In this document: positions 30,001-54,848 of the stretch, piece by piece
How the letters are laid out: the number at the start of each line of letters is the position of its first letter
How positions within the stretch are numbered: the first letter of the stretch is position 1
Assembly (NCBI GenBank): GCA_964542475.1
Contig: CAZIUL010000005.1
Span: 91,066-155,065, forward strand
Length of the DNA stretch: 64,000 bases
Direction: 5' to 3'
From: an uncultured Phycisphaerales bacterium
GTDB lineage: Bacteria; Planctomycetota; B15-G4; CAYZWU01
Notes under the pieces: model-generated
Told to the model about the DNA's origin: nothing
Database searches by the model: none
Seen by the model: only the letters and a program-made list of their open reading frames with translations
Translations under genes and position numbers: made by a program

Positions 30001-30051
30001 CTGTTTTTAACCGGGGCTTGAGGCCAGAGGAAAAAACGCAGCATGAGCGCA

Positions 30052-30093
30052 GGTTACGGTGCCGCAGCAGATGAGGATGAAATATGCGGGTTA
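30052..30093 (-). repeat. Family A 3'-end element, copy 1 (its last 3 nt are the stop codon of the minus-strand gene at 30091..31074)
   Basis: GGTTACGGTGCCGCAGCAGATGAGGATGAAATATGCGGGTTA. Gene-sense reading: TAACCCGCATATTTCATCCTCATCTGCTGCGGCACCGTAACC. Confidence 0.75.
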
Positions 30094-31074
30094 TCCCGCT
30101 TTGATCGCTGCGAGCCTGCGATCGATCTCCCGCCGGAGTTTTCCGATGAACTCTTCTGTCTTGCCCGGTTCGACCAGTTCGATCGACGAGCTGTTGGTCC
30201 GGATTGTGCCGCATGGCAGTCCGAGATCCTCGTAATAGCGGTAGCCGTTTTTGAAAACCTCCCTGAAGAAGACAACGCGGCTCCATTTTAAAAAAGGCAT
30301 GCCTTTCTGATACGGGTTTCGAAAAAGCTCGAAGCTGACAAACCCGCTGTTGTCGACAGGGATAGGCGGGGCAGCCGGGTCGTATTCGAAGAAGGCTCCT
30401 CCTTCAGGAAACAGATGGCGGGCGGATCGGTTGCAGGAGGAGGGCAGGAGCTCGCCGTATGCTTCGAAACGGTCGAACGGTGTACGGAAAACGAGGGAGA
30501 GCTCGTAAAGGCGAAGGAAAACATTGATGCAGTAAAGGTTCCTTTGACGGCTCAGAATTACGGTGCCTTCTTCGGGCGCGGCGAATGTAATCGTCAGCTC
30601 CTGCGTTTCGCACTTGGAACCGCCCTCGAGACAGTGTCCGTTTGTTTGACCGCTGATGTCGATTTCTACGCTGTGGCTCCCTGCTATTACGCAGAGCTTT
30701 TGATTAATGAACCGTATGAAGGCGTTGACATCCGGCTCAGGGAAGGAGCTGTCCAGGGGCAGGGTGAACGATTCTACCACCGGCTCCATGGACGCCCGCG
30801 CGACAGCCGGCCCTGTTGTCACCTGTTCTGATGCGGGGATCCTCTCTTTGCGCGCCTCTTCCGAAAAACCGGGAGCACCCGTTGCTTCCGTCATGATCCG
30901 GGAAATAACGGTTGCAGGTTTGCCGCGGTGAAAACCGTATGGAGCGGTGCCGGGCCACGCATTCGATTCGCAGTGTTGCCCTGTTCGGGCAAGAAAAACA
31001 GAGGCTGCGAGCACCAGGGAAAGGGCAGTGATAACCAGAACGGCGGCTTTCTGCCACTGGTTTCCAGGATGCAT
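30091..31074 (-). CDS. Hypothetical membrane-anchored protein
   Basis: N-terminal transmembrane anchor. No recognisable catalytic motif. Confidence 0.45.
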   Translation of the reverse strand: MHPGNQWQKAAVLVITALSLVLAASVFLARTGQHCESNAWPGTAPYGFHRGKPATVISRIMTEATGAPGFSEEARKERIPASEQVTTGPAVARASMEPVVESFTLPLDSSFPEPDVNAFIRFINQKLCVIAGSHSVEIDISGQTNGHCLEGGSKCETQELTITFAAPEEGTVILSRQRNLYCINVFLRLYELSLVFRTPFDRFEAYGELLPSSCNRSARHLFPEGGAFFEYDPAAPPIPVDNSGFVSFELFRNPYQKGMPFLKWSRVVFFREVFKNGYRYYEDLGLPCGTIRTNSSSIELVEPGKTEEFIGKLRREIDRRLAAIKAG

Positions 31075-31110
31075 CTCTATCCACCTTCGAATAGAAACAT
31101 AATATTAGAG

Positions 31111-31173
31111 TCCGTTGAAAAAGTCAGATCGGCTACGGCCTGACCTTTTGCCCGATCTGACTTTTTCAACGGG
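31111..31173. repeat. Family B long perfect hairpin (21-bp arms, 19-nt loop)
   Basis: CCGTTGAAAAAGTCAGATCGG-ctacggcctgaccttttgc-CCGATCTGACTTTTTCAACGG. A truncated second copy is at 32638-32685. Confidence 0.8.
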
Positions 31174-31287
31174 TTCATAAGCATTCAACGATGTATGAAG
31201 TGACCCGGGAGGCAATAAGATAACAGACAAATTTCGCTCCCGCGGCTTGAGGTGGAGCAGATAAACGCAGAGGAAGCGGCGTAGGGA

Positions 31288-31330
31288 AGGGAAGAAAGAA
31301 GAAGAGAAGCACGGATTGACACGGATAATT
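31288..31330 (+). repeat. Family C purine-rich/CACGGAT repeat, copy 3
   Basis: GGAAGGGAAGAAAGAAGAAGAGAAGCACGGATTGACACGGATAA. Confidence 0.6.
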
Positions 31331-31529
31331 CATAACAAGCAATGATGAGGGCACTGTCATGCCTTGTTGATTGTTTATGGTGTATTCGAACATTGAGCCG
31401 GATTGGATAAACAAAAATATGGCTCGCTTGAGCTGTTGTCTGGGATCAGGTGGTGTAGGATAATGAACCTTCCTATGTTCTCATTGGTTTTTCGGAGAAC
31501 GTAAGAACGGTACAGGAGTAGATTATATA

Positions 31530-32612
31530 TTGGTAGCCATGAACTCAAAAAAAACCGATGGACCAAAACGCCGATCCGTCCTGCTAAAGCTTTTCTTTCG
31601 ACTGCTGTTAATGGTAGTCGCCATTATCGTTGGGGTGCTCCTTGTCGAGATCTTTCTCGCAGTCTTTGCACCCTTTGGCATTGATCACTTCGCGAACCGC
31701 CGCGTCTACGAGGAGGTCTTCGTGGGGCCGGCCGGCGCACCAGGGGTGAACTACGAGCTGAAGCGCGAACGCTCTGTAGAGGCTGGAGTCCTGTACCGTA
31801 CAAACAACCTCGGCGCCCGCGGCGGTGAGGTGGCTATCCCCAAGCCGGACGGCATCTACCGTATAGTGTTTTCCGGCGATTCCAACACCTTCGGGTGGGG
31901 CGTGGCCGAGGAGGACACCTTCGTGGCGCGGGTGGAGCGCGGCCTCAATGAACGTGCTCGGCCTCCCGGCACAAAGCGTTTCGAGTGCGTGAATCTCAGC
32001 GCCTTGGCATACAATACCGTGCAGGAGGCGGCACTGTTGCGCTCCAAGGGGATGATGGCAGAGCCTGATGTGATGTGTATCGTTTTCTGCATGAACGACG
32101 TGTTAATAAAGGGGAAGGACGATGACTATGTGCGTATCGAGCGAGACATGTTCGAGTCGCGGCGGTCAACGCTGGACCGGTTCTTCGCGGACAACCTGGG
32201 ACCTTTCCTCAAACGGGCGGGACTTTACCACATCCACGATTTCCTCACGTACCTGTTTATTTCGCGGTACAACCAGACCTATTACGAAACAGTGGAGAGA
32301 TTTTTCCACGGCATCGATGAAGGCTTTGTCCTTGTGAAGGACTCTTTAAAGGAATTCAACAGGTTCGCGAAGAAGCGAGGGCTTCCGTTTGTACTGCTCG
32401 ACCTGACGGGCAAGAAGGAGCTCGAGGCGCTCGCGAACGAGCACGGCTTCGGTTACGTGAACCTTTTCGATGCCGAGATCCAACGCAGCCCCGAGTATTG
32501 GAATTCGTACTGCGATCCCCACCCCAACGCCGACGGGCATGCCTTCTATGCGGGCCGGATCTTGGATGGGATCCACCCATGGATCGAGGGTGAGGAGTTT
32601 CCAGGGAGATGA
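31530..32612 (+). CDS. SGNH/GDSL-family hydrolase, N-terminally membrane-anchored
   Basis: Transmembrane helix, then the GDSNTFGWG block (catalytic Ser), then a DxxH block near the C-terminus (DPHPNADGH). Confidence 0.75.
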   Translation: MVAMNSKKTDGPKRRSVLLKLFFRLLLMVVAIIVGVLLVEIFLAVFAPFGIDHFANRRVYEEVFVGPAGAPGVNYELKRERSVEAGVLYRTNNLGARGGEVAIPKPDGIYRIVFSGDSNTFGWGVAEEDTFVARVERGLNERARPPGTKRFECVNLSALAYNTVQEAALLRSKGMMAEPDVMCIVFCMNDVLIKGKDDDYVRIERDMFESRRSTLDRFFADNLGPFLKRAGLYHIHDFLTYLFISRYNQTYYETVERFFHGIDEGFVLVKDSLKEFNRFAKKRGLPFVLLDLTGKKELEALANEHGFGYVNLFDAEIQRSPEYWNSYCDPHPNADGHAFYAGRILDGIHPWIEGEEFPGR

Positions 32613-32637
32613 TACCCGTCCCTCGATTCCAAGGAGC

Positions 32638-32685
32638 CCGTTGAAAAAGTCAGATCGGCTACGGCCGGACCTTTTGCCCGATCTC
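32638..32685. repeat. Family B hairpin, truncated copy 2 (left arm plus loop plus 8 nt of right arm)
   Basis: CCCGTTGAAAAAGTCAGATCGGCTACGGCCGGACCTTTTGCCCGATCT. It is followed at 32684-32756 by a further imperfect hairpin (CTGCGTTGCGAGATCCTCAAC…GTTGAGGATCGTCTC…ACGCAG). Confidence 0.7.
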
Positions 32686-32757
32686 TGCGTTGCGAGATCC
32701 TCAACGAATCCCCTGAGGTTGAGGATCGTCTCCCGGCATGAAACGCAGGCACAGCGC

Positions 32758-32800
32758 AGTTTACGGTGCCGCAGCAGAAGAGGATGAAATATGCGGGTTA
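32758..32800 (-). repeat. Family A 3'-end element, copy 2 (contains the stop codon of the gene at 32798..33790)
   Basis: GTTTACGGTGCCGCAGCAGAAGAGGATGAAATATGCGGGTTA. Confidence 0.75.
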
Positions 32801-33790
32801 AAACTCGAGATCGGGAAGCTCCTTCTCTTGAACCAGTTTCACGGTTAACAAGATGACATGGTTCTTGTTGTCTTTGTCCTTGCCGGGGATGGCATAGATC
32901 ATGGAACCGGTGTCTTTTAGAATGGCCATGGTTTCCATTTCCACCGTTTTTGTGGCTGCTCTGGCAACGGGGCCGTGCACGGTTTCGATCTCTTCGATGG
33001 GCCGCTGGATCATCATGTTTTTTGAGGACAGGTTGAGGCCGATATTATTTTCCTGGAGCAGGGAAGCCCTGACATCAATGATGAGACCTTCCTGGAGAAT
33101 TTCTATTTGGGGATCCACTATACTGTTTTTGGTGGGCTCAACATATACGTGGACTTCGTAACCGGTAATAAGGGCGATCTGGTTTATGATAGAAATTATT
33201 CCTTTCCGACCATTATTAACGAGGAGCCTGGGCGCGGAGAGAATGCAGCTTTCCTTGTCTTTTTGACATTCATCCAGCAGCTTCTTGCTTTTTTCGTCGG
33301 CAATGGTCAGAGCCACTTTTGACCCCTTCTCTCCCATTAACCGGTTGAAGGCACCCGGAGACAGCGCGTAGTAGGTGAGCTCCACCAGGAACTGCACATC
33401 GCCGGCTGAACGCCGCGTTTCAAGGAATGACTGAATCCATTCGTGTTGCTTGGGGCGAACCAGGGCGACCAGGGAGCTGGCGCCGATGGCCTTGACCTCT
33501 TCACGGTTTTCAACCAGGGGCGGTTGGATAAAGTCACGGATGATATCCGCCAGGTTTTCCGTGTGTTTCCACATTTCATCGGCCACATCGATTTTTTCCT
33601 CGTGATCACCGGTACCACTTTTCACAGCCTTTGAAATGAGCCGAATATGATTCCCGACATCGTATATTTGCAAGACCAGCGTGTTATCAGATGCGTTCAT
33701 GTCGTTAGTGATGGTCGTAACTTGATCCTGTGCCGCAAGGCACGAAAGCAGGATAAAAAAGAAAAATGTACATGAAAAACATCTAGTCAT
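32798..33790 (-). CDS. Hypothetical secreted protein, downstream of an ECF sigma/anti-sigma pair
   Basis: Signal peptide (FFFFILLSCLAAQDQ). No confident domain call. Confidence 0.45.
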   Translation of the reverse strand: MTRCFSCTFFFFILLSCLAAQDQVTTITNDMNASDNTLVLQIYDVGNHIRLISKAVKSGTGDHEEKIDVADEMWKHTENLADIIRDFIQPPLVENREEVKAIGASSLVALVRPKQHEWIQSFLETRRSAGDVQFLVELTYYALSPGAFNRLMGEKGSKVALTIADEKSKKLLDECQKDKESCILSAPRLLVNNGRKGIISIINQIALITGYEVHVYVEPTKNSIVDPQIEILQEGLIIDVRASLLQENNIGLNLSSKNMMIQRPIEEIETVHGPVARAATKTVEMETMAILKDTGSMIYAIPGKDKDNKNHVILLTVKLVQEKELPDLEF

Positions 33791-33848
33791 TGTTGAACTC
33801 CTTGTTTAGGATCAATCATCCAAGTTAACATACGCCAATTGATGTGAT

Positions 33849-34382
33849 CTAAAACTGAACGTGATCTTTACACACAATAGATGCAAAGCATATGAATCCA
33901 TTTTCGATTTCCCTTTTATCAGGGATAACTATGCTGTGAGTTGAGCTCCAACCGTCCTGTGTTCGGACCATGGTGCTCTTCTCGAAGGTATTGGTGAGTG
34001 TGATCTTGTATTTGAAATCCAGAATGGTGCTCCTTGTCTGTTCGCCCGGCTCCTGGTCCTGAATCACAACATGCCGTTCCCTTTCCAGAGGCGCATTGTT
34101 GTAGGAATCCAAGAACATCCACAACAGGAAGGCAACCGTCCCCGCAGCCAGGACCATTACCCATGTGAGTCCGTGACGTTTGGTTGACCTGGTTTCATCG
34201 ACCATGGTATATGCCTCCCTGAGGACGGCCAGGCGGTCACAAAGGGAGGTCAGCTTATGGGCATGTTCCGGGTGTTCCAAAAGGTAATCCTGAACAAGTG
34301 TGTCTTTGAAAGGATCGTTTTTCTGATCCAGGATCTCCTGCACCCTGTTCCAGAACCCTTCTTTGGTTTTCATCTCAGGCAT
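33849..34382 (-). CDS. Putative anti-sigma factor (single transmembrane helix)
   Basis: Cytoplasmic N-domain, then a transmembrane helix (WVMVLAAGTVAFLLWMFL), then a periplasmic C-domain. Overlaps the ECF sigma gene. Confidence 0.5.
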   Translation of the reverse strand: MPEMKTKEGFWNRVQEILDQKNDPFKDTLVQDYLLEHPEHAHKLTSLCDRLAVLREAYTMVDETRSTKRHGLTWVMVLAAGTVAFLLWMFLDSYNNAPLERERHVVIQDQEPGEQTRSTILDFKYKITLTNTFEKSTMVRTQDGWSSTHSIVIPDKREIENGFICFASIVCKDHVQF

Positions 34383-34959
34383 CCTTTTCTCGTGACTCAG
34401 CCAGCTTACGTCGTGCCCGGTGCAAGAGGGACTTTACAGTGCCCTCCGGTTTGTTCAATGCTGATGCAATGTCTGATATCGATTCGTCATAGCAGTGGAA
34501 GCGAACCAGAACGTCCCGTTCCTTGGAACCGAGTCCCTCGATCAGCTTTGCGACCAGCTCTCGGTTTTCGATCTCACTCCTGGAAGGCGCCTGGATTTCC
34601 GATACCCGGTCACCTAACAGGCCGGGTGCCTGTCCCCTTTTCAGGCGATGGTCTAGAAAGGCGCGGAAAGCGGTTTTTTTGAGCCAGCCGTAAAGCGATC
34701 CCTCCGGTTCAAAGGCATGGCGGTACCGCAAGGCGCGTTCCACCACATCGTGTAGAAGGTCTTCGCCTTCTTCCGGAGCCAATCTCTGGAGAAAGGCCTT
34801 GAGCTTCGGAATTTCCGCTGCCAGTTGATTGTCCGATGTTTCCACCGGTTTGGTACGATTGTTTGCCATTGTTCTTATAGTACACTTACCTGCAAGAGAT
34901 GAAAAAGGTTGCAGCGAATTGAAATTAATACGAAAATCCTCTGACTCCCTTTTGTCCAT
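34375..34959 (-). CDS. ECF-subfamily RNA polymerase sigma-70 factor
   Basis: Region-2 motifs (…YRHAFEPEGSLYGWL…) and the region-4 helix-turn-helix (ESISDIASALNKPEGTVKSLLHRARRKL). The likely true start is MANNRTK, internal to the ORF. Confidence 0.75.
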   Translation of the reverse strand: MDKRESEDFRINFNSLQPFSSLAGKCTIRTMANNRTKPVETSDNQLAAEIPKLKAFLQRLAPEEGEDLLHDVVERALRYRHAFEPEGSLYGWLKKTAFRAFLDHRLKRGQAPGLLGDRVSEIQAPSRSEIENRELVAKLIEGLGSKERDVLVRFHCYDESISDIASALNKPEGTVKSLLHRARRKLAESREKDA

Positions 34960-35000
34960 TCCTCTTTTGATTGGGCTTTGATTACTGCTGTTGATTATTT

Positions 35001-37151: not shown

Positions 37152-37190
37152 TGGACGGATCCGGGCCGTTCCAGGCGCGGGCTTTCCACG

Positions 37191-37232
37191 GGTTACGGCG
37201 CCGCAGCAGAAAAGGATGAAATATGCGGGTTA
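37191..37232 (-). repeat. Family A 3'-end element, copy 3 (29 nt downstream of the stop of the gene at 37261..38418)
   Basis: GGTTACGGCGCCGCAGCAGAAAAGGATGAAATATGCGGGTTA. Confidence 0.75.
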
Positions 37233-37260
37233 ACTGTTGTAACGAGTTCACTTCGGTTCC

Positions 37261-38418
37261 TCAAACAAGGGGTGCATCTTCGTTCCCCTGTTCCGTGTTT
37301 TCATGGGAAGGGTCTTCCTCGCCGTTCTCCTGGTCCTTTTTTCCGAGGATCCGGTCGAAAGCGGTGAGGCCGCCCATGGCACCCAGTCCCATGGTTTCCA
37401 CGGCCGTGCTTGGAACTATGATCATGGATCCCTTCTTCTTGAGCCCTTCGAACACCATGTTCATGGCCCTGAGATGCAGGGCGGCCGGATTGTTTTTGTA
37501 GAATTGAGATGCATCCGCGAATTTCTCCGCAATCTCGGCTTCAGCATTGCTCAAAATGATGCGTGATTGGCGTTCCCGTTCGGCCTGGGCCTTCCGGCTC
37601 ATGGCATCTTCCAGCGCCTCGGGGATGATGATATCCTTGATCTCCACCGACTGTACGGTAATTCCCCATGCACTCGTTTTGGCCTCGAGCACCTGCTGGA
37701 TCTCCTTTCCCAGCCTGTCCCTGTGGGAAAGCATCTCCGCGAGTTCACTCCTCCCTATGGCATCCCTGAGAGCGGTCTGGGCGGAGTAACTCACCGCCTC
37801 GGTGAACTTCTCCACCTCGAGCACGCTCTTTTCAGCATCCCAAACCATCCAGAAGGCGATGGCATCCACACTCACAGGGACGGTGTCACGGGTGAGCGTT
37901 GTTTCAGCATTGAAGTCGATGACGCGGATTCTCTGATCCACATAGTTGGCGACTTTGTCGATTACAGGGAATAGAAAAAAAATGCCAGACCCGCGCAGCC
38001 CTTTGAACCTGCCGAAGCGCAGGATCAGGGCTTTTTCCCACTGGTACGCCATCTGAAAACAGGGTGAGATAAGCCCTGCCGCAACCACGGTGGTGACAAG
38101 GACCCAGCTTTCCGGACGGTGGCGCAGGAACACAGCCAGTGCTCCCAGAGTTGTGAGAACGAGGATCGATTCCCATATCTGCGTCAGGCGAAACACCAGT
38201 ACCATTCCCAGGGCCACGGCAGCCATGGTGATCACTACAGGCAACTGAAACGTGTACATCTGAAGATGAACAACAAGCCCGATAAGGCAGAGCGAAAGCA
38301 AGATTGCAACATTCAACGGACCGAACCGATAATCGGCATGGAAGCTGATGGCGAACTGCTCCAGGGTTTTGAGTTTGGACTTTTCTTTTAACATGGACAT
38401 TTCTGTCTCCTTTATCAT
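37261..38418 (-). CDS. SPFH/band-7 (stomatin/HflKC-like) membrane protein
   Basis: N-terminal transmembrane helices followed by an SPFH domain (…RVIDFNAETTLTRDTVPVSVDAIAFW…) and a coiled-coil Ala/Glu-rich region. Confidence 0.8.
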   Translation of the reverse strand: MIKETEMSMLKEKSKLKTLEQFAISFHADYRFGPLNVAILLSLCLIGLVVHLQMYTFQLPVVITMAAVALGMVLVFRLTQIWESILVLTTLGALAVFLRHRPESWVLVTTVVAAGLISPCFQMAYQWEKALILRFGRFKGLRGSGIFFLFPVIDKVANYVDQRIRVIDFNAETTLTRDTVPVSVDAIAFWMVWDAEKSVLEVEKFTEAVSYSAQTALRDAIGRSELAEMLSHRDRLGKEIQQVLEAKTSAWGITVQSVEIKDIIIPEALEDAMSRKAQAERERQSRIILSNAEAEIAEKFADASQFYKNNPAALHLRAMNMVFEGLKKKGSMIIVPSTAVETMGLGAMGGLTAFDRILGKKDQENGEEDPSHENTEQGNEDAPLV

Positions 38419-38789
38419 TGGCGCTTGCGCTGATCGAGGTTTTCCAGGATATCCTCGATGGTGAATCCATAAGAAGAAGCCCTTGAAAGGAACTCCTGGC
38501 AGAGCTGATCGAGCATGCGCTGATGCTCCACCTCGTCCAAAGAAACTTCTTTGTGGCAGGCAAAAGTGCCCGAGCCCATCTGGGTTTCCACCAGGCCCGT
38601 CAGTTCGAGCTCGGTATAGGCGCGGCTGACCGTGTTCGGGTTGATGGAGAGATCCACAGCCAGCTGACGCACGGTTGGAAGGCGATCTCCTGATTCCAGC
38701 AGGCTGGTTGCAATGGCGCTTTTCACCTGATCGATGATCTGTCGGTAGTAGGGAACACCGCTATTTGAGTCGATCTGAATTTGAATCAT
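38415..38789 (-). CDS. GntR-family HTH transcriptional regulator (short, YtrA-like)
   Basis: N-terminal winged helix-turn-helix: GDRLPTVRQLAVDLSINPNTVSRAY. Overlaps the SPFH gene by 4 nt. Confidence 0.8.
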   Translation of the reverse strand: MIQIQIDSNSGVPYYRQIIDQVKSAIATSLLESGDRLPTVRQLAVDLSINPNTVSRAYTELELTGLVETQMGSGTFACHKEVSLDEVEHQRMLDQLCQEFLSRASSYGFTIEDILENLDQRKRQ

Positions 38790-39114
38790 TTTGTTCCTCA
38801 GAATCGATAAAGTCCTAATACACTATTGTATTAAGATAATAGTACATTATACATGTTTGTCAAGTTTGAATTTAGTGGAAATGCAGAACCGAAGGAGTGG
38901 AATGCTTTTAATGCTCTAATTATACCGGAGTTACACCGTAATTTTTTTATGGGGAAGAGTACAAATATTCGCGCTAAAGCAAATTTTGAAATCCAAGAAG
39001 CTCAAGATTAGTGTGCCTGAACCATAAAAACCGAGTTTCAATCACGGCAATAGTTGCTCATGGCGTTCTCAGACCGGGTCATGGATGAATCATCCCATGT
39101 TCGTTTTTATACGG

Positions 39115-39882
39115 TTATTTTTTTTCGAGCTCCGCCACCTTTTTTTCCAGAGCCGCCACCCTTTCCTTGAGCTCGGTGTTCATGGTGTAAATGGGGAGCA
39201 GATAATCGCCGGCATCGTTATCCATTATTTTGATCAGCTTGACCATGGTGTGAACCTTGGTCGCAAAGCTGGTGATGATCAGCCCGTTTGATTTTTGCAC
39301 CGTCCGCACGGACCCCATGGCCTGGTTTGTAAAGAAAGGGTTCAAGGAAGTAAGGGTCTCCCTGGCATCGATATGCTTCAAGGGCACGTGGGTCGTAATC
39401 AGAATGCCCCTGTCCGCATAGTCTTTCACCTCTTCTGGGTTTACGAAGATTGAGCTGTTTATGGCAAGAAAACTGTTACGGCTTTCCCTGCCGGGTGTGA
39501 TTTTAACGATTTGAAAAATGGCGGAAGCTCCTTCACCTGTTTTCAAACACAAGTAGTCATGACACAAAAGCAGACGCTCGAAGAAGCCTTGAAATTTCGA
39601 TTTCGGTATTTGCATCGAAGATGAGAACTGGAAATTGCACCCATCTATTTCCGCTTCATTAAACAGAAACGAAAGGTTTAATGTTTTGCTGGCCAGGTCG
39701 ATGAACTTTTTCATTGTCATGGAACAGTTTTCGTCCAGGGGCAGCACAACAGGGGGCTCTTCTTTCTCTTGGGGACATTGAGGAGGTGCGGCGCACGAAG
39801 AGGCAAGGTCGAGGAAGAGGGCAAGTCCGAGGCAGATGCAAAGGGCGAACAAGGACAAGAGTCCTTTTTTCAAAATGTTCAT
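39115..39882 (-). CDS. Hypothetical secreted protein or lipoprotein with C-terminal coiled-coil
   Basis: Signal peptide with a Cys shortly after it. C-terminal heptad segment ELKERVAALEKKVAELEKK. Confidence 0.45.
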   Translation of the reverse strand: MNILKKGLLSLFALCICLGLALFLDLASSCAAPPQCPQEKEEPPVVLPLDENCSMTMKKFIDLASKTLNLSFLFNEAEIDGCNFQFSSSMQIPKSKFQGFFERLLLCHDYLCLKTGEGASAIFQIVKITPGRESRNSFLAINSSIFVNPEEVKDYADRGILITTHVPLKHIDARETLTSLNPFFTNQAMGSVRTVQKSNGLIITSFATKVHTMVKLIKIMDNDAGDYLLPIYTMNTELKERVAALEKKVAELEKK

Positions 39883-40029
39883 GGCTATAACCTCCCGGAA
39901 AAGAATAATGATTGTTAGCGGAGCGATGTTATTCGCTGTCCCGAATAGATCGCTTTGACCTGATCCAAGCGAGATTACTTCCGATTAAATATACGTTTGT
40001 TTCCGCGGGGATCAAAGCAAGGCGTGCCC

Positions 40030-42337: not shown

Positions 42338-42354
42338 TTTGATCGAGGAAGTAA

Positions 42355-43239: not shown

Positions 43240-43332
43240 CGCGCTTGTTTTCATCGAACAGGCAAACGAATGACGAAAAGGTTTATTTTTACAAGACTTT
43301 AACAAGAGTTCATTGAACCACAGAGGTAGCAA

Positions 43333-44073: not shown

Positions 44074-44219
44074 ACAAGACCGCCATCAGGCGGAACCCGT
44101 CGATGCCTGCTGGAATGCGTACGCGGCATCGAGCCCGTTCGATAGGGCATCCGCGGGATTTCTGCCGGGGCTGTATAAGTGTTGAATCGATCCGTTTTTG
44201 AAGAAACGATAGAGAAAGG

Positions 44220-45899: not shown

Positions 45900-45970
45900 G
45901 TGGCAGGAGGGGCACGGCAAGCATCCGGTTCCGAACAGGCGGATCCACGCGCTTCACTATTGCTGAACCT

Positions 45971-48100: not shown

Positions 48101-48175
48101 GTGCGGTTCGCGAACTGCCCGGTTCATGCCAGGTTCCAGCCGGGCTCTTCTCTCCCGAAAGCTTGACCCCTCTCT

Positions 48176-48208
48176 GCCGCAGCAGAAGAGTATGAAATAA
48201 GCGGGCTA
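48176..48208 (-). repeat. Family A 3'-end element, copy 4 (truncated; contains the TAG stop of the gene at 48206..48991)
   Basis: GCCGCAGCAGAAGAGTATGAAATAAGCGGGCTA. Confidence 0.65.
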
Positions 48209-48991
48209 CAGCCCCAGCGCTTTGATCTCCTGTTCGAAACGGGAAGGGTTTATCTCCAGAAGCCAGCCTTCGCCGTATGAATCCTGGAGTACTTCTTCAG
48301 GATCCGCGAGCACCTTTTCGTTCACCTTTACCACGCTGCCGGAGAGAGGGGACCAGATCACGTGCGACCTCAGGTCCGCTGTGAACAGCTGCAGGCACAT
48401 GCTTCCCTGGCGGAGTTCGTCGCCGACCGAGGGCATGTCCACGGTCAGTACCTTGCCGATCATGAGAAGGAACGGGCGTTCAACCCCGATGAGCACGTTG
48501 CCGCTCTTCCGGCGCATCATCCAGGTGTGCCCGCCGATTCCATTGAACGCGTTGGCCGGCTTCCGCTCGCCTCTTCCGATGAACTCTTCGGGTTCAGCCG
48601 CTGTCCCGGCTCCTTCCCCGCCAACGAGCTGGGCCGCGCGTTTCACAACCCCCCTCAGCTCCGACTTGGTGAACGGCTTGGAAACATAGTCGAACGCGCC
48701 GAGCTGCATGGCCTGGAGCGCGGTGTTGATGGTGGCGTACCCCGTGACCATGATGATGGGGATCCCTGCATGCTTCGACTTGACCTCCTTCATGAGCTCC
48801 AGCCCGTCCATATCAGGCATCATCAGATCCGTCAGGATGATATGAACCGTTTCCTTTTTCAGGATTTTGAGCGCGTCCTCGGCGGACAGCACCTTGAACA
48901 CTTTGTCCGTGTCCTGTCTCAGGTGCCTCTCAGCGCTGTCGAGCACGATCTGTTCGTCGTCAACCACTAAAATGTTCAATTCTGTTTCCAT
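48206..48991 (-). CDS. Response regulator: CheY-like receiver fused to a GcvH-like (glycine-cleavage H / lipoyl-domain fold) C-terminal domain that lacks the lipoyl-lysine
   Basis: Receiver: VVDDE…D(54)LMMPDMDG…K. C-terminal SPLSGSVVKVNEKVLADPEEVLQDSYGEGWLLEI matches the GcvH C-terminus, but the ESVKA lipoylation site is replaced by TADLRS. Confidence 0.8.
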   Translation of the reverse strand: METELNILVVDDEQIVLDSAERHLRQDTDKVFKVLSAEDALKILKKETVHIILTDLMMPDMDGLELMKEVKSKHAGIPIIMVTGYATINTALQAMQLGAFDYVSKPFTKSELRGVVKRAAQLVGGEGAGTAAEPEEFIGRGERKPANAFNGIGGHTWMMRRKSGNVLIGVERPFLLMIGKVLTVDMPSVGDELRQGSMCLQLFTADLRSHVIWSPLSGSVVKVNEKVLADPEEVLQDSYGEGWLLEINPSRFEQEIKALGL

Positions 48992-49051
48992 AGCTCGACT
49001 CCATGGTTTTATTTTCTATTTCTCGTAGATCCTTTGTCGGCCGCTACCGGT

Positions 49052-50881
49052 CTACCGGGCCGGCGGCAGAACGATCCGGAAGATCGCTCCTTCGTTTTCC
49101 GCAGTGTCCACTTCTATCACGCCGCGATGGCGTTCCACTATACCCCAACTCACGGCCAGCCCAAGCCCGCTCGTCTCCTTGGAAGAAAAAAACGGTTCGA
49201 AAATTTTGTCGATCATGTTCTCCGGGATGCCGGGGCCGGTGTCCTCCACCGAGATGACGCACTTGTTCTGATTGCGATCGTATTCGGTTTTCAACGTAAT
49301 CGTGCCTTTTTCCTTCATCGCATCCAGGGCGTTCAGCATGAGGTTCAAAACCACCTGCTGAAGCTGGGATGGATCTGCACGGATGAGCGGCAGCTCCTCG
49401 GCTTTTTTCATCTCAAGAGTAACGTTTTTGAACCTGGGCAGCTTTTCCACCAGTGAAAGAGTTTTATCCACAATGCTGTTCGCATCCGTTTTTTCAAACC
49501 TGGGTGTTTCCTGTTTCGCGAAATCCAGCAGGTTCCGCACGATGTCTCTGCAGCGCAGGGTTTCCCTGATGATGACTTTGACATCATTGTGAAGGTCGCT
49601 GTCTTCGGGAACCTCCTCAAGGATGCTTTCGGCAAAGGCGAGCACCCCTGTCAGGGGGTTGTTGATCTCGTGAGCCACACCGGCTGCGAGCTTGCCCACT
49701 GCGGCGAGCTTGGTGGACTGGACCAGCTTGTCCTGGAGCTGCTTCTTCACTGTGACATCGCGAGCAATTGTACACACCCCCGTGGCTTTGCCCTTGTAGT
49801 CCGGCAGGGGAAACCGCACAGTGTTGAAGTGCCGGTTCTGTTCGTTGATCTGGAAGGTCTCCTCGTATGTGCGGTGAACGTTTTTTTTCATTACCTCCCG
49901 GTCGTTGCGGTCCACGATCATGGCGACTCCCTCGGGCAGGACCTCCTCGACCTTTTTTCCAATGAAATCCTTTTTCTCGAGGCCGTATGCTTTGGCAATG
50001 GTCTTGTTTACCACCAGGTAGCGCCCTTCCAGATCCTTGATGCAGATGTGATCCATGGCTGCGTCGATGAACCGCCTGAAACGTTCCTCCGCGCGCTCGA
50101 TTTCGCGCCGAAGCATGACCCGCTCGGTTATGCGGTGCCATGTTTCTATGACCGCCTCGATGTCGCCCCGCTCGTTCTTGATGGGAGTCTGCGTTACCTC
50201 CCAGAAAGATTCCGCCGGTGATATGCTTTGGTGTACGCTGCTCAACGGTTTACCCGATGCAAACACCTTGTCGAGGTTGCAGGCCGCGTACAGGCAGTCG
50301 ATTGCAAGGTTCGTGCTCTGGAACAGCTCGAAACATTGCTTGCCGATGGCGTCTTTCTGGGGGATGCCCGTGTATTCCGTGAACCTTGCGTTTGTCCGTA
50401 TCACCTTTCTCTCTTTGTTCAGCACCATGACAAGGTCAGGGATGCTGTCGAACAGGCTTTGGATGTACAGCTGCTCCTTCTCGACCTCCTGCTTCAGCTC
50501 GGTCTTTTCCGCAAGCCTTCGTTCCTGTTCCGCCTGGGCGTTTGCCAGGTCCCAGAAGATGTGAGCGAACGTGTGGTCAATGAGCTTGGCACCGCGCGGG
50601 AGGTTCTGAATTATCTTGTCCAGCACGGCGTTGCTGCCTGTGAGCTCGATTATGAGCTCTATGTCCGGAATGGAAAGGGCCGCGGCCATGTCGTTCGTAG
50701 TCTTCATGCCGTGCGATTTCGCATAGGCAAGCCCGGGCGCGTCATGATCGAGGTCCATCACGCAGATGACATCCAGGATCATTTCTTTGAGAAAAGCTCC
50801 CCTGGCAAGATCAAGGATGGCCTGGCAGCCTTTTCCTCCGCCTATGATAACGGTTTTCATGCGAGCGAGTTCCCCAACCAA
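49052..50881 (-). CDS. Cytoplasmic sensor histidine kinase: N-terminal Rossmann-like domain, two PAS domains, HisKA, HATPase
   Basis: N-terminus VIIGGGKGCQAIL. H-box AAGVAHEINNPL. G-boxes DTGPGIP…GLGL. The likely start is MKTVIIGG at about 50860. Adjacent and co-oriented with the response regulator. Confidence 0.85.
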   Translation of the reverse strand: MVGELARMKTVIIGGGKGCQAILDLARGAFLKEMILDVICVMDLDHDAPGLAYAKSHGMKTTNDMAAALSIPDIELIIELTGSNAVLDKIIQNLPRGAKLIDHTFAHIFWDLANAQAEQERRLAEKTELKQEVEKEQLYIQSLFDSIPDLVMVLNKERKVIRTNARFTEYTGIPQKDAIGKQCFELFQSTNLAIDCLYAACNLDKVFASGKPLSSVHQSISPAESFWEVTQTPIKNERGDIEAVIETWHRITERVMLRREIERAEERFRRFIDAAMDHICIKDLEGRYLVVNKTIAKAYGLEKKDFIGKKVEEVLPEGVAMIVDRNDREVMKKNVHRTYEETFQINEQNRHFNTVRFPLPDYKGKATGVCTIARDVTVKKQLQDKLVQSTKLAAVGKLAAGVAHEINNPLTGVLAFAESILEEVPEDSDLHNDVKVIIRETLRCRDIVRNLLDFAKQETPRFEKTDANSIVDKTLSLVEKLPRFKNVTLEMKKAEELPLIRADPSQLQQVVLNLMLNALDAMKEKGTITLKTEYDRNQNKCVISVEDTGPGIPENMIDKIFEPFFSSKETSGLGLAVSWGIVERHRGVIEVDTAENEGAIFRIVLPPAR

Positions 50882-51168
50882 TGAACTGTTTATGCGGCCC
50901 GCTTGGCCAGGTGCTTTACCTGAGCAGATCAGAGTCTAACGTCTGGGAAATTCCGTGTCCAGCATCTCGTCGTACTCATTTGTGAACCGGGAGAGGCTGC
51001 TGTAAAACGCTTTGGGCTTGATAGTGAAATGGAGCAGCAGCGCCTCGAGCTTTGGCGGAATATTTTGAAAGCTCTTTTGAATCGTTCATCCGCTTTGTTC
51101 TCCGGCACAGGGGGTTTCGCGTGTATAATGCGTGCCGTAATCGATCAAACTGAGGAGCTTCGGATAAA

Positions 51169-51378
51169 GTGAAGCGCGGAAACAAGCAAAAAAGAAGAAA
51201 AAAGCGCGAAAAAAAGCCACAGCTTTGCTGCTGCTGCCGGCAAAGCTATTCTTTTTGCTGGGCATGCCCGTGCGGTTTCCTGATATGCCAGGCCTGCCTG
51301 GACGAGAACCTCTGGGGCATGACCTGCAACAATGTGACATGGACATGTCCTGATTGCGGGCAGGCCCGGTCCTTTTGA
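51169..51378 (+). CDS. Small, highly Cys-rich basic protein (69 aa, 13 Cys; Zn-ribbon/treble-clef-like). Hypothetical.
   Basis: GTG start preceded by GAGGAG (11-nt spacer), with TATAAT at 51124-51129. Sequence KRGNKQKRRKKREKK then CCCC…CWAC…CQAC…CPDC. Confidence 0.3.
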   Translation: MKRGNKQKRRKKREKKPQLCCCCRQSYSFCWACPCGFLICQACLDENLWGMTCNNVTWTCPDCGQARSF

Positions 51379-51393
51379 GTCGGCAACCCTTTT

Positions 51394-51517
51394 TCCTGGA
51401 GGTCGGCAGTCCCTTGTAGCGTGTGTTCATTACCGGCGCCGACGGAGCGGCGCCCTCCATTGTTTAACCGACGCATTCACTTTATCCTGGAGGGCGGCAG
51501 TCCCTTGCCGCCTCTTT
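51394..51517. repeat. Family D GC-rich structured repeat, copy 1
   Basis: …CCGGCGCCGACGGAGCGGCGCCCTCCATTGTTTAACCG…CTGGAGGGCGGCAGTCCCTTGCCGCCTCTT. Stems: GGCGCCG/CGGCGCC and GGGCGGC/GCCGCC. Confidence 0.75.
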
Positions 51518-51558
51518 TCTTCCCTGAACCCAGAACGCCTTAACCGCATTATTACCGA

Positions 51559-51948
51559 CTAATGATAGTCATGTGTCTGCTGCACCACCTTCACGCCTGT
51601 TTTGTTTTCTATGTACTTCGCCATGTCGTCCGCGCTGGCGTAGGGGCATTCCGGCATGGCTTTCACCATGCAGGTGCTCATGTACACCGCATCAGGCTTG
51701 GTTTCGGACTGTTTTATGTTCAGCCCAATGTTCGGCGGGGTGGAGCGCCCGGGGCACTGGCACCTTACGAAACCGATGACGCGTGCTTCCTCGTCGAAGT
51801 TGCCTTCGCCGAGCGCGGCCGCTTTCAGGCAGCGCCACTCTCCGGGGCAGCCGTAGCCCGAGTCCATGTAAGCTCCGCATCCGACTACTATCACGTTTTT
51901 CATCTGTTTATCCTTGGTTTGATTGAAAGAGCCTGCTGCTTTGCTCAA
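51559..51948 (-). CDS. CGGC-domain protein (Cys-rich, redox/Fe-S-like)
   Basis: VVGCGAYMDSGYGCPGEWRC…CQCPG…CPYA. The likely start is MKNVIVVG at about 51900. Confidence 0.65.
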   Translation of the reverse strand: MSKAAGSFNQTKDKQMKNVIVVGCGAYMDSGYGCPGEWRCLKAAALGEGNFDEEARVIGFVRCQCPGRSTPPNIGLNIKQSETKPDAVYMSTCMVKAMPECPYASADDMAKYIENKTGVKVVQQTHDYH

Positions 51949-51977
51949 CGAAAAACGAGCTGTCGGCCCAGTCTGAT

Positions 51978-52556
51978 TTATTTGGTAAGAAACCGATCCA
52001 GGACCTTCTTCGATTGCGCTTCCACTGTTTCGTGGATGCTGTTTCCATGGGTGTCCATGGTCACGATCACGGGGAACTCCTTCGCTTGTACGACCCAGAA
52101 CGCTTCAGGGGTTCCGAGCTCTTCAAGCAGGTGGACATCGAGCACCTCCTCTATTGCCACTGCTGTAGAGGTCCCGCAGCCGCCCACCGCATGGAAGTAA
52201 ACAGCGCCGAGCCTTTGGCACGCTTCCATGGTCTTTTTCCCCATGCCGCCCTTGCCGATCACGCCGCGCACACCGTAGCTTTCGATGACCTTTGCCTGGT
52301 ACGGCTCTTCGCGTATGCTCGTGGTGGGGCCGGCGGCAACGAAAGACCACTTGCCGTCCTCGTTCTTTACAACCGGGCCGCAGTGATAGATCACGCCTTG
52401 GGCGAGAAGGTCGTCCAAGAAGTCCGGGCGCTCTTCAACCATCAGCTTGTGAGCAGCGTCGCGTGCGGTCACCATGACGCCGGAGAGAAGCACCGTGTCC
52501 CCTACCTTCAGGGATCTGATTTTTTCATCGGATATGGGAATGTCTATTTTAATCAT
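51978..52556 (-). CDS. fumB: Class I (Fe-S) fumarate hydratase, beta subunit (C-terminal domain type)
   Basis: Fe-S hydro-lyase beta fold (…GPTTSIREEPY…GKGGMG…). Overlaps the alpha subunit gene by 8 nt. Confidence 0.85.
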   Translation of the reverse strand: MIKIDIPISDEKIRSLKVGDTVLLSGVMVTARDAAHKLMVEERPDFLDDLLAQGVIYHCGPVVKNEDGKWSFVAAGPTTSIREEPYQAKVIESYGVRGVIGKGGMGKKTMEACQRLGAVYFHAVGGCGTSTAVAIEEVLDVHLLEELGTPEAFWVVQAKEFPVIVTMDTHGNSIHETVEAQSKKVLDRFLTK

Positions 52557-53421
52557 AGCTGGCTTCTCCGTTTTTACACGTCATTGTTTTCCGCCTGCAT
52601 GCCCAGCACATGTAGGAGACCGAAACATAGAAGGTGGCGGGATGGCGGTGTTGCTTGGCAGCAAAAACGTTGAGCACCGTGGTTTTTCCGCCGAACCCCA
52701 TGGGACCTATTCCAAGCTCGTTGAGCTCGGTCAACAGCCTGTTTTCGAGATTTGCCAGGTCGGGATCCAGGTTGACCGAGTCGAACTTCCGGAAGAACTG
52801 CTCCTTGCCGAGCATGTATGAGGTAGTGCGGTCGCCCCCGATGCCGACGCCGATAATGCCCGGGCTGCACCCTTTGCCCTGGGCCTTGAACACGGCGTCG
52901 AGCACACACCTCCTGACACCGTCGAGATCGCGTCCCGCGCCCAGCGCCGCGTCGGGAAGCTTGTACTGGGCGCTCACGTTTTCGCTGCCCCCTCCCTTTT
53001 GCATGAGCTTGACCAGGGTCTGGTCCTTGTCCCATTGTTTGAACGAGACATAGGGCGTGTTGACGCCTACGTTGTTCCCCGTGTTTTTGCCTGTGACAGG
53101 GTCAACCGCGTTCGGCCTGAGCAACAGATCCTTTGTGGCCCTTTCTGCCGCGGCCTCCACGGCCTTCCGGAACATGACGGTGTCGGTTCCCTGTGGATGA
53201 TACACGTAAAGTATGAGCGATCCCGTGTCCTGACAGATGGGAGTCACCGCTTCTCTGGCCATCTCGACGTTGTCAAGTATTGCCTGGAAGGTGTTGGCCG
53301 GCGTGGATCCGGCCTCCTCCTTTGCCAGGGCTTCCTGCAGCGCGGCTTCCACATCGTGTGACAGGTCGGTGCTCGAACTTTTTATCAGGTGATAAAGCTG
53401 GTTGACAACTGTTTCGTTCAT
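52549..53421 (-). CDS. fumA: Class I (Fe-S) fumarate hydratase, alpha subunit
   Basis: Conserved CQDTGS Fe-S ligand region and catalytic-domain blocks. Gene pair arrangement as in two-subunit class I fumarases. Confidence 0.85.
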   Translation of the reverse strand: MNETVVNQLYHLIKSSSTDLSHDVEAALQEALAKEEAGSTPANTFQAILDNVEMAREAVTPICQDTGSLILYVYHPQGTDTVMFRKAVEAAAERATKDLLLRPNAVDPVTGKNTGNNVGVNTPYVSFKQWDKDQTLVKLMQKGGGSENVSAQYKLPDAALGAGRDLDGVRRCVLDAVFKAQGKGCSPGIIGVGIGGDRTTSYMLGKEQFFRKFDSVNLDPDLANLENRLLTELNELGIGPMGFGGKTTVLNVFAAKQHRHPATFYVSVSYMCWACRRKTMTCKNGEASYD

Positions 53422-53630
53422 GACACTCCTCTCTGTAAACGCCGGTTATCGTTGACAGCAGCCATTCTATTGAATCTCGACACTTCTTTCCTCAATGTAA
53501 TAAGGTTTGTTTCGATTTTTTCCCGTGTATAATTCACGGTTTTCAATCGGTTGCGCGCGAAGCGTTTTTTTGTGTGTGTGAGGACACCCCCTTCGTTTAT
53601 TGAAGGGAACACGTTGTTCGAGGAGGCATC

Positions 53631-54809
53631 ATGATACGCGAGAAGATTGAGCAGACCTACGGCATTCTTGACGAGATGAACATCGACATGTGGATGATAT
53701 TCGCACGCGAAAGCGCGGTCATCTCAGACCCGGCTATCGAGCTCGTGGTCGGCACCGAGTGCACGTGGCAGTCAGCGTTCGTTTACACGCGGGACAGGAA
53801 ATCGTACGCAATCGTGGGCAACCTGGACGAGGCGAGGTTCAAGGGCCTCGGGGTCTTCGACGACGTTCGCTCGTACGTGACCGGAATCAAGGAGACGCTG
53901 CTGGACCTGTTCAAGACGCTGAACCCGTCCAGGTTCGCGCTCAACATATCAAAGAACGACTACATGGCGGATGGGCTCACATACGGAATGTTCCAGCTCT
54001 TGCAGCAGCATCTCGCGGGTACCGAGTGGGCAGACCGCTGGGTTCCATCCGAGAAGATCGTCGCGGCGTTGCGCGGCCGCAAGTCGTCCACGGAGCAGGA
54101 GCGCATACGCAAGGCCGTTGAGATGACCGAGGAGATCTACTCGAAAGTCACCGGTTTTTTGAAGCCCGGCAGGACCGAGAAGGAGGTGGCCGCGTTCATC
54201 CTGAAACAGGTGGACGAAGCAGGGATCGAGACGGCATGGAACCGCTCCGAATGCCCCGCGGTGTTCACCGGCCCCGAATCCGCGGGCGCGCACTGCGGGC
54301 CCACGGACAGGCCCATGGAGCCGGGGCACATCATGAACATCGACTTCGGCGTCAAAATCGAAGGGTTCTGTTCGGATATCCAGCGGACCTGGTACTTCCT
54401 GAAGGAGGGTGAGAAGGAGGCTCCCGATACCGTGAAGAAGGCGTTTCAGACCATCGTGGATTCCATACGGACGGGCGCTGAAAAGATCCGGCCCGGCATG
54501 ACAGGGCTCGAAGTGGACACCATCGTGCGAAGCTTCATAACGGACAGCGGCTATCCCGAGTACCCGCATGCAACAGGCCACCAGGTCGGCCGCTCGGCGC
54601 ATGACGGGGCCGCGACCCTTGCGCCGGAGTGGGAGCGGTACGGCGAGATCCCGCACATGAAGATGGAAGAAGGGCAGGTCTACACCATAGAGCCGCGCAT
54701 CCCGGTAGAGGCCCACGGCGTGGCCACATCCGAGGAGATCATCGTTGTGACGAAGGATGGCGGAAAGTTCCTGTCCCACCCGCAGACCGAGCTGTTTTAT
54801 GTCGGATAG
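53631..54809 (+). CDS. M24-family metallopeptidase (Xaa-Pro aminopeptidase/creatinase-like)
   Basis: Pita-bread fold metal ligands D…D…H…E…E (NIDFGVKIEGFCSDIQRT…HATGHQVGRS…YTIEP…). Confidence 0.8.
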   Translation: MIREKIEQTYGILDEMNIDMWMIFARESAVISDPAIELVVGTECTWQSAFVYTRDRKSYAIVGNLDEARFKGLGVFDDVRSYVTGIKETLLDLFKTLNPSRFALNISKNDYMADGLTYGMFQLLQQHLAGTEWADRWVPSEKIVAALRGRKSSTEQERIRKAVEMTEEIYSKVTGFLKPGRTEKEVAAFILKQVDEAGIETAWNRSECPAVFTGPESAGAHCGPTDRPMEPGHIMNIDFGVKIEGFCSDIQRTWYFLKEGEKEAPDTVKKAFQTIVDSIRTGAEKIRPGMTGLEVDTIVRSFITDSGYPEYPHATGHQVGRSAHDGAATLAPEWERYGEIPHMKMEEGQVYTIEPRIPVEAHGVATSEEIIVVTKDGGKFLSHPQTELFYVG

Positions 54810-54848
54810 ACCGCATGGTTCATAACCATCTGCTGCGGCGTTGTAAAC
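54807..54848 (+). repeat. Family A 3'-end element, copy 5 (diverged; plus orientation; begins with the TAG stop of the M24 peptidase gene)
   Basis: TAGACCGCATGGTTCATAACCATCTGCTGCGGCGTTGTAAAC, aligned against gene-sense copies 1-4 TAACCCGCATATTTCATCCTCTTCTGCTGCGGCACCGTAAAC. Confidence 0.6.

Follow-up and report, generated by a model that had tools for sequence, protein, structure and literature searches.

Four of the five copies of a short conserved element in the window, by which we mean the whole 64,000-nt stretch of DNA analysed here, begin exactly on the stop codon of a gene. These stop-codon elements are very probably the leftover ends of a non-coding MITE family that inserts at TA, and the conserved motif, judged by its sequence, most likely corresponds to the terminal inverted repeat and subterminal left arm of such a MITE. 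The copies are most likely an ordinary relic of selfish DNA rather than an RNA signal of a new kind. One candidate for a new regulatory RNA is therewith struck off, and in its place stands a concrete mechanism: a TA-targeting transposon with a purine as its first base can put a short repeat exactly on stop codons. The MITE family is previously undescribed and resides in uncultured Planctomycetota. The host of the window, at first assigned to Desulfobacterota, probably belongs there as well, as its AprA shares 87% identity with a protein named "MAG: Planctomycetota bacterium".

Five one-armed copies in the window

A search of the window for the 29-nt core CCGCNTNNTTCATNNNNNTCTGCTGCGGC, with up to three mismatches allowed, returned exactly five sites, each without a mismatch (30061-30089(-), 32768-32796(-), 37200-37228(-), 48176-48204(-) and 54811-54839(+)), where 100 shuffles gave a chance expectation of 0.00. 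The original prediction of a conserved five-copy element is thus confirmed. Directly before the core stands TAAC, TAGC or TAGA at every site, and the ORF list agrees with the earlier claim that the leading TAA or TAG is the actual stop codon in four of the five copies; none of the four occupied stops is TGA. Every copy lies in a spacer between convergent genes. As had been supposed, the host genes are mutually unrelated by BLASTP, and their Pfam matches differ (none; weak secretin; SPFH/Band 7; response regulator and GCV_H; peptidase M24). The insertions are therefore independent, and no duplicated gene is involved. An origin of the first two copies by tandem segmental duplication, considered in view of the similar size of the neighbouring genes, was rejected because the neighbouring proteins are unrelated. 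In short form, the family search pattern reads TA-RCCCGSATATTTCATCC. The sample of five copies is small and was picked since it looked striking.

Copy c1 (30034..30093, minus strand; repeat-family extent 60 nt), a probable left-arm remnant of the MITE, starts on TAA 30091-30093, the stop of ORF 30091..31074(-) for a hypothetical protein of 327 aa. Against the MITE profile, nhmmer aligns its positions 30092-30002 with positions 2-94 (E 8e-6), weakly past about 65 nt, and a T-run follows the copy. Copy c2 (32718..32800, minus strand), probably the longest left-arm remnant, occupies TAA 32798-32800, the stop of ORF 32798..33790(-) (330 aa, with the weak secretin match); its positions 32799-32718 align with positions 2-83 (E 6e-8), and CGATCCTCAAC is common to c2 and the full element. 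Homology beyond 40 nt extends over about 60-65 nt between c1 and c2 and over about 83 nt between c2 and the full element. Copy c3 (37185..37232, minus strand), likewise a putative left-arm remnant (37232-37193 align with positions 1-40, E 2e-6), is the one copy not placed on a stop: the TAA at its start (37230-37232) terminates no gene, and the copy follows, after 28 nt, the TGA (37261-37263) that ends the SPFH/Band 7 gene 37261..38418(-). The earlier description of one copy as lying past its gene's stop thus holds, and TGA ends both genes bordering this spacer. Copy c4 (48174..48208, minus strand), at about 35 nt apparently the shortest remnant, starts on TAG 48206-48208, which ends the response regulator/GCV_H gene 48206..48991(-), and aligns with positions 1-35 (E 3e-4). 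Copy c5 (54807..54856, plus strand), a presumably diverged remnant, starts on TAG, the stop of the M24 peptidase gene 53631..54809(+), and fills the 49-nt spacer between this gene and the convergent MFS/POT transporter gene 54859..56217(-), which likewise ends in TAG (CTA 54859-54861).

Each window copy is a single arm, 33-90 nt long, and the alignments to the MITE profile start at one and the same end throughout, reaching over positions 1-35 at the least and 2-94 at the most; the distal ends fall at five different points. The first 19 nt of c1-c3 are identical and the copies remain nearly identical to about 33-45 nt, beyond which their sequences are unrelated. Such near-identical starts fit recent truncated copies; constraint on the segment would fit too. 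The right inverted repeat was not found beside any of the five copies; candidate right repeats near c4 (CGGGAGAGAAGAGCCCGGCT) and c1 (CCCCGGTTAA) were weak, unconvincing matches and are not claimed as ends. A complete two-ended copy was not seen in the roughly 75 kb of the window genome examined, and a further 10 kb of this contig, upstream of the window, added no copies. The window's sequence lies on a 170-kb contig in NCBI and also in ENA ERZ23498668 scaffold_90.

The intact element in a marine Planctomycete metagenome

The 29-nt core recurs at 11 further metagenome loci, where it is the left end of a repeat of 164-214 nt; the same 33 nt as in the window motif form the left end of a MITE in a marine Planctomycete metagenome. 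The original prediction had named a mobile-element footprint associated with stop codons among its possible readings and had set membership of an IS or MITE terminal repeat against the more exciting ones; a MITE terminal repeat is what we found. The full copies (L012-L021) have TAGCCCGCATATTTCATCCG... at one terminus and the inverted copy, ...CGGATGAAATATCCGGGCTAG, at the opposite one. The terminal inverted repeats measure ~25 bp and read inward as (TA)RCCCG[C/G]ATATTTCATCCGTTTC, also given as TA-RCCCG[C/G]ATATTTCATCCG... The full element is nearly palindromic throughout and folds as one long hairpin (z = -8.75). Our census counts 13 elements at 11 loci, all from a single metagenomic organism, the Planctomycete bin of Ga0310121, none with coding capacity, and no pair of inverted ends more than about 215 nt apart was present in any locus.

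TA stands at both junctions in eight of the ten full copies with both junctions readable; the left-junction TA is mutated to CA in L016 and to TC in L021. The flanks are mostly C-TA...TA-G, with C before the left TA in 9/10 cases and G after the right TA in 7/11, and give the consensus (G)C-TA-G(C); L019 has the direct repeat CTAA/CTAA on both sides. The full copies thus possess two terminal inverted repeats, are small and non-coding, lie at unrelated loci and are flanked by a short duplication, as MITEs are, whereas the window copies, with one arm each, lack the two-ended inverted repeat. Counting against the MITE reading, the window flanks are A/T/G-TA, unlike the C-TA favoured by the Planctomycete copies.

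In 4 of 13 Planctomycete elements, about a third, the TAG of an element end is the stop of a long ORF, encoding respectively a 679-aa protein, ClpC (854 aa), MlaD (378 aa) and a DUF1559-like protein; a solo end in L017 lies at the stop of a fifth ORF of 100 aa. Either kind of end can adjoin a stop codon in these elements. The claim that orientation follows the gene is hence true of the window and does not extend to the full elements. Planctomycete copies also lie in divergent and tandem spacers. When the ends on stops of both organisms are pooled, nine of ten are of the CCCGC type.

Wider searches yielded little. A scan of genome contigs with a 20-base pattern gave at least four chance matches, inside coding sequence of unrelated phyla. 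A metagenome scan with CCGCWTATTTCATMCTNNTCTGCTG had no match because this pattern, itself valid in a local check, is too specific to the window subfamily. The inverted-repeat core gave no match in viral contigs and then 58 chance matches without a TA flank or partner end, and a plasmid BLAST of the full MITE had no match. An autonomous element with matching ends, or its transposase, was found nowhere among the loci, viral contigs and plasmids.

Empty sites and a proposed route to stop codons

The orthologous M24 gene in L022 (syntenic), L088 and L089 ends in a TAG stop without the element, at the same or an adjacent position (in L088 after one extra residue), and the response-regulator ortholog in L022 ends in TAA, again without the element. 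For these two genes, the presence/absence polymorphism typical of a MITE is therefore observed, among relatives of 75-79% amino-acid identity whose flanks are too diverged to give exact empty-site boundaries. No copies were found in the 22-kb loci of two further relatives, L090 and L091 (AprA 85-87%).

We propose how a MITE could come to sit on stop codons. As the target holds TA and the element opens with a purine, each inward junction reads TAA or TAG. Insertion at the TA of an existing TAA or TAG stop would then rebuild the stop and leave the protein untouched, insertions in coding sequence or promoters would be selected away, and TGA stops would offer no target. Together, these steps would leave surviving copies enriched on TAA/TAG stops and in convergent-gene spacers, so that the stop-codon overlap would result from a TA (CTAG-like) target, a purine first base and selection against insertions elsewhere. 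In the lineage of the window, the distal arm would since have been deleted to differing extents; because a deletion running into the gene would be lethal to that gene, the stop-touching arm would survive, with the gene-proximal end fixed and the distal end variable as the outcome. The conservation of primary sequence rather than of a hairpin, correctly noted at the outset, would follow from the motif being an end recognised by the transposase. Copies occur on stops more often than a plain random-TA null would give (P = 1.7e-4 over every intergenic TA; P = 0.024 within convergent spacers alone), and an extra target preference or selection must therefore be assumed.

As to the transposase, we favour an IS630/Tc1-mariner-like family. 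IS630-family elements have inverted repeats of ~24 bp and duplicate TA, and a preference of IS630 for CTAG, given in the title of a paper cited in PMC2170065, fits our CTAG-like flank consensus. Most copies fit a 4-bp YTAR duplication just as well, and the same mobile element might instead be of the IS5 type, with the whole TAR belonging to the target and none of it to the element, which we consider possible though not probable. Almost all intact junctions have, as the four bases outside CCCG, one of the YTAR tetranucleotides CTAG, CTAA and TTAA, and identical YTAR tetranucleotides stand on both sides in six of ten full copies, including the non-palindromic CTAA/CTAA of L019. However, for the CTAG/TTAA of L015 a 4-bp duplication needs two changes where a TA duplication needs one, none of the window junctions ATAA, GTAG and ATAG matches YTAR, and no IS5-like transposase is linked to the copies. 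IS5-group ends, moreover, usually begin GG or GA. The likeness to IS and MITEs of the IS5 group thus extends to the CTAG, CTAA and TTAA flanks and to the identical tetranucleotides around most full copies; the window junctions, the unmatched flanks of L015 and the unlinked transposase set our family apart.

Possible host functions and related repeat families

The window copies all retain the same left-type arm (5/5). Together with the nine of ten ends on stops in both organisms, this amounts to a mild bias in orientation, for which the simple model gives no reason. It is conceivable, albeit unlikely, that the family is adapted to stop codons as safe landing sites, with ends shaped to restore TAA/TAG from TA and their first base, and homes to gene 3' ends, and that the left arm is retained gene-sense in the window because the host now has a use for it where convergent genes end, such as a read-through barrier or 3'-end processing site. 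If this were true, the arm bias (9/10 overall) and the excess over random TA would be real signals and not small-sample effects.

We also consider unlikely a domesticated (exapted) transposon arm, kept gene-sense at 3' ends for a role of its RNA or DNA there, be it in 3'-UTR stability or processing, in protein binding or in insulating convergent transcripts from each other. The five gene-sense copies of one arm in the window, the prevalence of the CCCGC type on stops in two organisms, the shared starts of c1-c3, identical over 19 nt, nearly so to about 45 nt and unrelated beyond, the convergent genes flanking all five copies and the stop enrichment beyond the random-TA null speak in its favour. 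Yet Rfam gave no match over the whole window, the folding energies of c1-c4 equal those of shuffles, the five copies have five different end points, and orthologous stops are empty in the 75-79% relatives, with the 22-kb loci of two further relatives devoid of copies. The Planctomycete family, in addition, also occupies divergent and tandem spacers and uses either end, and the sample is small and was chosen for its striking appearance. Given the same lack of an Rfam family, shuffle-like folding in four of five copies, variable ends and empty orthologous stops, two readings of the original prediction find no support, namely a motif for stability or localisation in the 3' UTR and a site for an RNA-binding protein.

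That the motif is an intrinsic terminator of transcription, or some other structured RNA signal common to the 3' ends of several genes, is highly improbable, for although it lies immediately 3' of stop codons, with a T-run after c1 and a 12-bp GC-rich hairpin (GCTGCGGCGTTG/CAGCGCCGCGGC) in c5 (z = -3.83), this hairpin is private to c5, the common stem has only 5 bp (CCGCA/UGCGG) around an 18-nt loop, c1-c4 fold no better than shuffled sequence (z = -0.10, -0.44, -0.31 and +0.37), and a terminator/promoter scan found sites no more frequently than in shuffled sequence, and no site that the copies have in common. Two other ideas were dropped on inspection of the sequence alone: an integron attC site, there being neither attC-like core-site symmetry nor a cassette array, and selenocysteine/pyrrolysine recoding, as TAA and TAG are both used.

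Read as a MITE, the family is close in kind to IS630/Tc1-mariner-derived MITEs such as RUP of Streptococcus pneumoniae, mobilised by IS630-Spn1, and Correia/NEMIS of Neisseria, with which it has in common a non-coding length of about 100-200 nt, terminal inverted repeats of ~25 bp, a whole-element hairpin, TA at both junctions and many intergenic copies (PMC2229807, PMC2170065). It differs from RUP and Correia/NEMIS in having no sequence similarity to them, in the purine first base, which yields TAA/TAG junctions, and in the one-armed state of the window copies. Pneumococcal BOX repeats, too, are small interspersed repeats that lie over the extreme 3' ends of unrelated genes and supply the stop, which they do for 36 genes of S. 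pneumoniae ATCC 700669, with no evidence of a truncated protein (PMC3049150). BOX is, however, modular (boxA/B/C) and not a TA-flanked inverted-repeat element, whereas here the stop would be composed of the target TA and the first element base. RAYT-associated REP/BIME sequences resemble the window copies as short repeats downstream of genes, often between convergent genes, but REPs are imperfect palindromes of 20-40 nt without terminal inverted repeats or target duplication. The conserved 33 nt described here are no such palindrome (5-bp stem), and the full element has inverted ends and TA flanks.

Annotators should accordingly expect one-armed remnants of this MITE family at gene 3' ends, where such copies can mislead motif hunters. 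They can also interrupt the assembly of metagenomes: among the 11 loci recovered, L011 and L014 stop within the element.

Copies at gene ends and the full-length element

Searching the window with CCGCNTNNTTCATNNNNNTCTGCTGCGGC, with up to three mismatches allowed, returned exactly five sites, each without a mismatch and against 0.00 expected from shuffles, and thus recovered the same five copies as the original prediction: c1 (30034..30093), c2 (32718..32800), c3 (37185..37232) and c4 (48174..48208) on the minus strand, and c5 (54807..54856) on the plus strand. In gene sense, the first four bases are TAAC, TAGC or TAGA in every copy, and CCGC comes next. As had been claimed, the leading TAA/TAG is a real stop codon in four of the five copies, namely that of ORFs 30091..31074(-) for c1, 32798..33790(-) for c2, 48206..48991(-) for c4 and 53631..54809(+) for c5; c3 (at 37232) lies 28 nt past the TGA of ORF 37261..38418(-). 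The host genes are indeed unrelated: the five upstream proteins show no kinship to each other and differ in their Pfam matches (from c1 to c5: none, weak secretin, SPFH/Band 7, response regulator with GCV_H, and peptidase M24), and hence the copies were not spread by gene duplication. Convergent genes flank all five. The element had also been described as ~40 nt long and conserved; conservation holds, but the length is not fixed, since in the alignment the likeness runs ~60-65 nt in c1 and c2, ~45 nt in c3 and ~33 nt in c4, while c5 is a diverged version.

The whole window gave no Rfam match, and a scan of species-representative genomes for the core yielded, among the matches listed, only four chance ones inside genes of unrelated phyla. 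A second scan, of metagenomes, revealed 11 loci with the same core, 10 of them from one marine metagenome (Ga0310121). Here the core extends into a 164-214-nt repeat whose far end is an inverted copy of its near end (TAGCCCGCATATTTCATCCGTTTC ... GAAACGGATGAAATATCCGGGCTAG), and the full element folds as one long hairpin (-76.9 kcal/mol, z = -8.75). Full copies mostly carry TA at both junctions; C precedes the left TA in 9/10 copies and G follows the right TA in 7/11, so that the preferred site looks like (G)C-TA-G(C), and in locus L019 CTAA stands on both sides as a direct repeat. Together, the inverted ends, the hairpin spanning the element and the TA junctions with a direct repeat are hallmarks of MITEs, non-autonomous transposons that move by cut and paste. 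PSCyt3/PSD4/PSD5 domains and a DUF1559-like N-terminus show that these loci belong to a Planctomycete. Length variants indicate that arms gain or lose segments: one copy has a 20-nt block in its left arm, and another has the complement of this block on the right. The two copies concerned lie 3.2 kb apart in locus L018 (5012-5223 and 8413-8611, equal to 12563-12774 and 15964-16162 of L086), and both adjoin a stop codon (of ClpC and MlaD); their block, CGGGCACCGAAGCGCAGCTTTGGTCGG, suggests a longer ancestral palindrome, with one side of the block lost in each copy.

The element is a MITE for which IS630-like is our preferred superfamily candidate. IS630 is said, in 1991 work by Tenzen and Ohtsubo, to prefer CTAG. 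The inverted ends, TA junctions and CTAG-like sites fit this family, which is characterised by inverted repeats of ~24 bp and by duplication of TA (PMC2170065). Most full copies, CTAA/CTAA of L019 among them, agree equally well with an IS5-type duplication of 4 bp (YTAR), but L015 (CTAG versus TTAA) and the window junctions ATAA, GTAG and ATAG agree with it poorly. No autonomous partner was found, with no end pair more than ~215 nt apart in any locus; scans of viral contigs for the ends gave chance matches only, and a plasmid BLAST found nothing. TA-flanked MITEs are well known from bacteria, with RUP and Correia elements as examples (PMC2229807); ours adds a new family to this known kind and is present here as relics.

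Single arms and empty sites

Among the readings originally offered, that of a mobile element proved essentially right: the window copies are the left, CCCGC-type arm of the MITE, and the sites of c4 and c5 are empty in relatives. A profile built from the full elements aligned to the window copies only in its left part, at positions 2-83 for c2 (E 6e-8), 1-40 for c3 (E 2e-6), 2-94 for c1 (E 8e-6, weak beyond ~65) and 1-35 for c4 (E 3e-4), with a weak match only for c5 (E 0.16). Neither searches that allowed up to three mismatches nor local alignment found a right, inverted end near any window copy, and the window and an extra 10 kb of the same contig contained no further fragments of the family. 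The Planctomycete locus L017 has a comparable solo end where a 100-aa ORF stops; one-armed remnants at the ends of genes therefore also occur outside the window.

Loss of the distal arm may reflect the instability of long palindromes, in a family that visibly drops arm segments. A deletion from inside the element away from the gene would be harmless, one into the gene would destroy its end, and survivors would share one end, at the stop codon, and differ in how far they extend distally. All five window copies show this combination.

Locus L022 is syntenic with the window and carries both the M24 gene (75% identical, TAG stop) and the response regulator/GCV_H gene (TAA stop), with no element at either. 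In two further relatives, L088 (79%) and L089 (75%), M24 ends with TAG at the same or an adjacent position, again with no element. The stops thus came first and the element later, in the window's lineage. Another two relatives, 22 kb each, held no copy. In L089 (3479-3530), the M24 stop precedes TAGACCGCG, eight bases shared with c5 (TAGACCGCA), and a plain terminator with hairpin and T-run lies behind them; this identity is probably chance but could be the trace of an older insertion.

Stop codons as insertion sites

At the junction, TA is followed by a purine, which is A in c1-c3 and G in c4, in c5 and in most Planctomycete copies. An element that lands in the TA of a TAA or TAG stop therefore restores a stop in frame, which would come without cost to the gene. 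Every occupied stop in the window is TAA or TAG. The sole off-stop copy, c3, lies in the only occupied spacer where both genes end in TGA and no stop-codon TA is on offer. Crude gene calls place 331 TA dinucleotides of the window in intergenic DNA and count 28 TAA/TAG stops; if sites were drawn at random from all intergenic TA, the probability that four copies out of five fall on stops would be P = 1.7e-4, and P = 0.024 within convergent spacers only (31 TA versus 12 stops, likewise from crude calls). In the Planctomycete loci, the TAG at one end of 4/13 elements doubles as the stop of a long ORF, the products being a 679-aa protein, ClpC, MlaD and a DUF1559-like protein, and ends of either type are involved. 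This proportion is unremarkable for a CTAG-like target (P about 0.4 if a 25% share is assumed) and a mild enrichment for a plain TA target (P = 0.024). A preference for TA in CTAG-like context, together with purging of harmful insertions, would suffice to explain the stop-codon pattern.

Small interspersed repeats that give many unrelated genes their stop are already documented, as pneumococcal BOX elements supply the stop codon of 36 genes (PMC3049150). Co-option of the arm at the ends of genes is improbable in our view and is kept in play mainly because of an arm bias: the same arm is kept in 5/5 window copies, and 9/10 ends on stops are of the CCCGC type when both organisms are pooled. This mild bias could be chance, given small numbers and a selected sample. 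The RNA-signal readings of the original prediction are unsupported: its common 5-bp stem is real but weak, c1-c4 fold at shuffled level (z = -0.10, -0.44, -0.31 and +0.37), c5 alone is structured (z = -3.83) via a hairpin absent from the other copies, and the number of sites in a terminator and promoter scan was not above shuffles.

Other repeats and genes of the window

A second repeat family of ~100 nt (D2, D7, D9; 51382-51525, 57670-57755, 61604-61792) has five copies, some in tandem pairs ~90 nt apart, and consists of two hairpins rich in GC (GGCGCCG...CGGCGCC and GGCGGCAGTC..TTGCCGCC) with a CT-rich tail behind them; it has no Rfam match. The third repeat (D3, D8; 9807-9872, 29915-30005, 31283-31338), a purine-rich run (AGGAAGAGGAAGAAAG...) followed by 2-3 copies of CACGGATNNACACGGA, may represent a protein-binding array or another small mobile element; one copy shares the convergent spacer of c1 and directly adjoins it. 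A 51-nt repeat whose two copies are 96% identical (D13, I14; 31108-31158 and 32634-32684, with an inverted pair at 31152-31176 / 32634-32658) has a T-run and, internally, the stem AGATCGG...CCGATCT, and looks like a small terminator-like repeat. One copy is immediately distal to c2, and the spacers around 30-33 kb are thus mosaics of several repeat families.

A tandem array of five units, 126-132 nt long and 63-74% identical (D1, 63326-63957), lies inside a kinase-WD40 gene (18870-21083 of L001), and its units are hence most likely the WD40 repeats of the encoded protein. The organism of the window is probably, like that of the MITE loci, a member of Planctomycetota: among named AprA proteins the nearest to its own, at 87% identity, belongs to a Planctomycetota MAG, and sulfatase and kinase-WD40 genes lie nearby. 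Window positions 1-9000 and L083, DNA of the same contig, carry sat, aprBA, H+-pyrophosphatase and QmoABC-like genes adjoining sulfatases. Relatives have dsrAB-like NIR_SIR genes nearby. By gene content, the sat/aprBA/Qmo-like set and the relatives' NIR_SIR genes point to putative dissimilatory sulfur metabolism in a Planctomycetota lineage.
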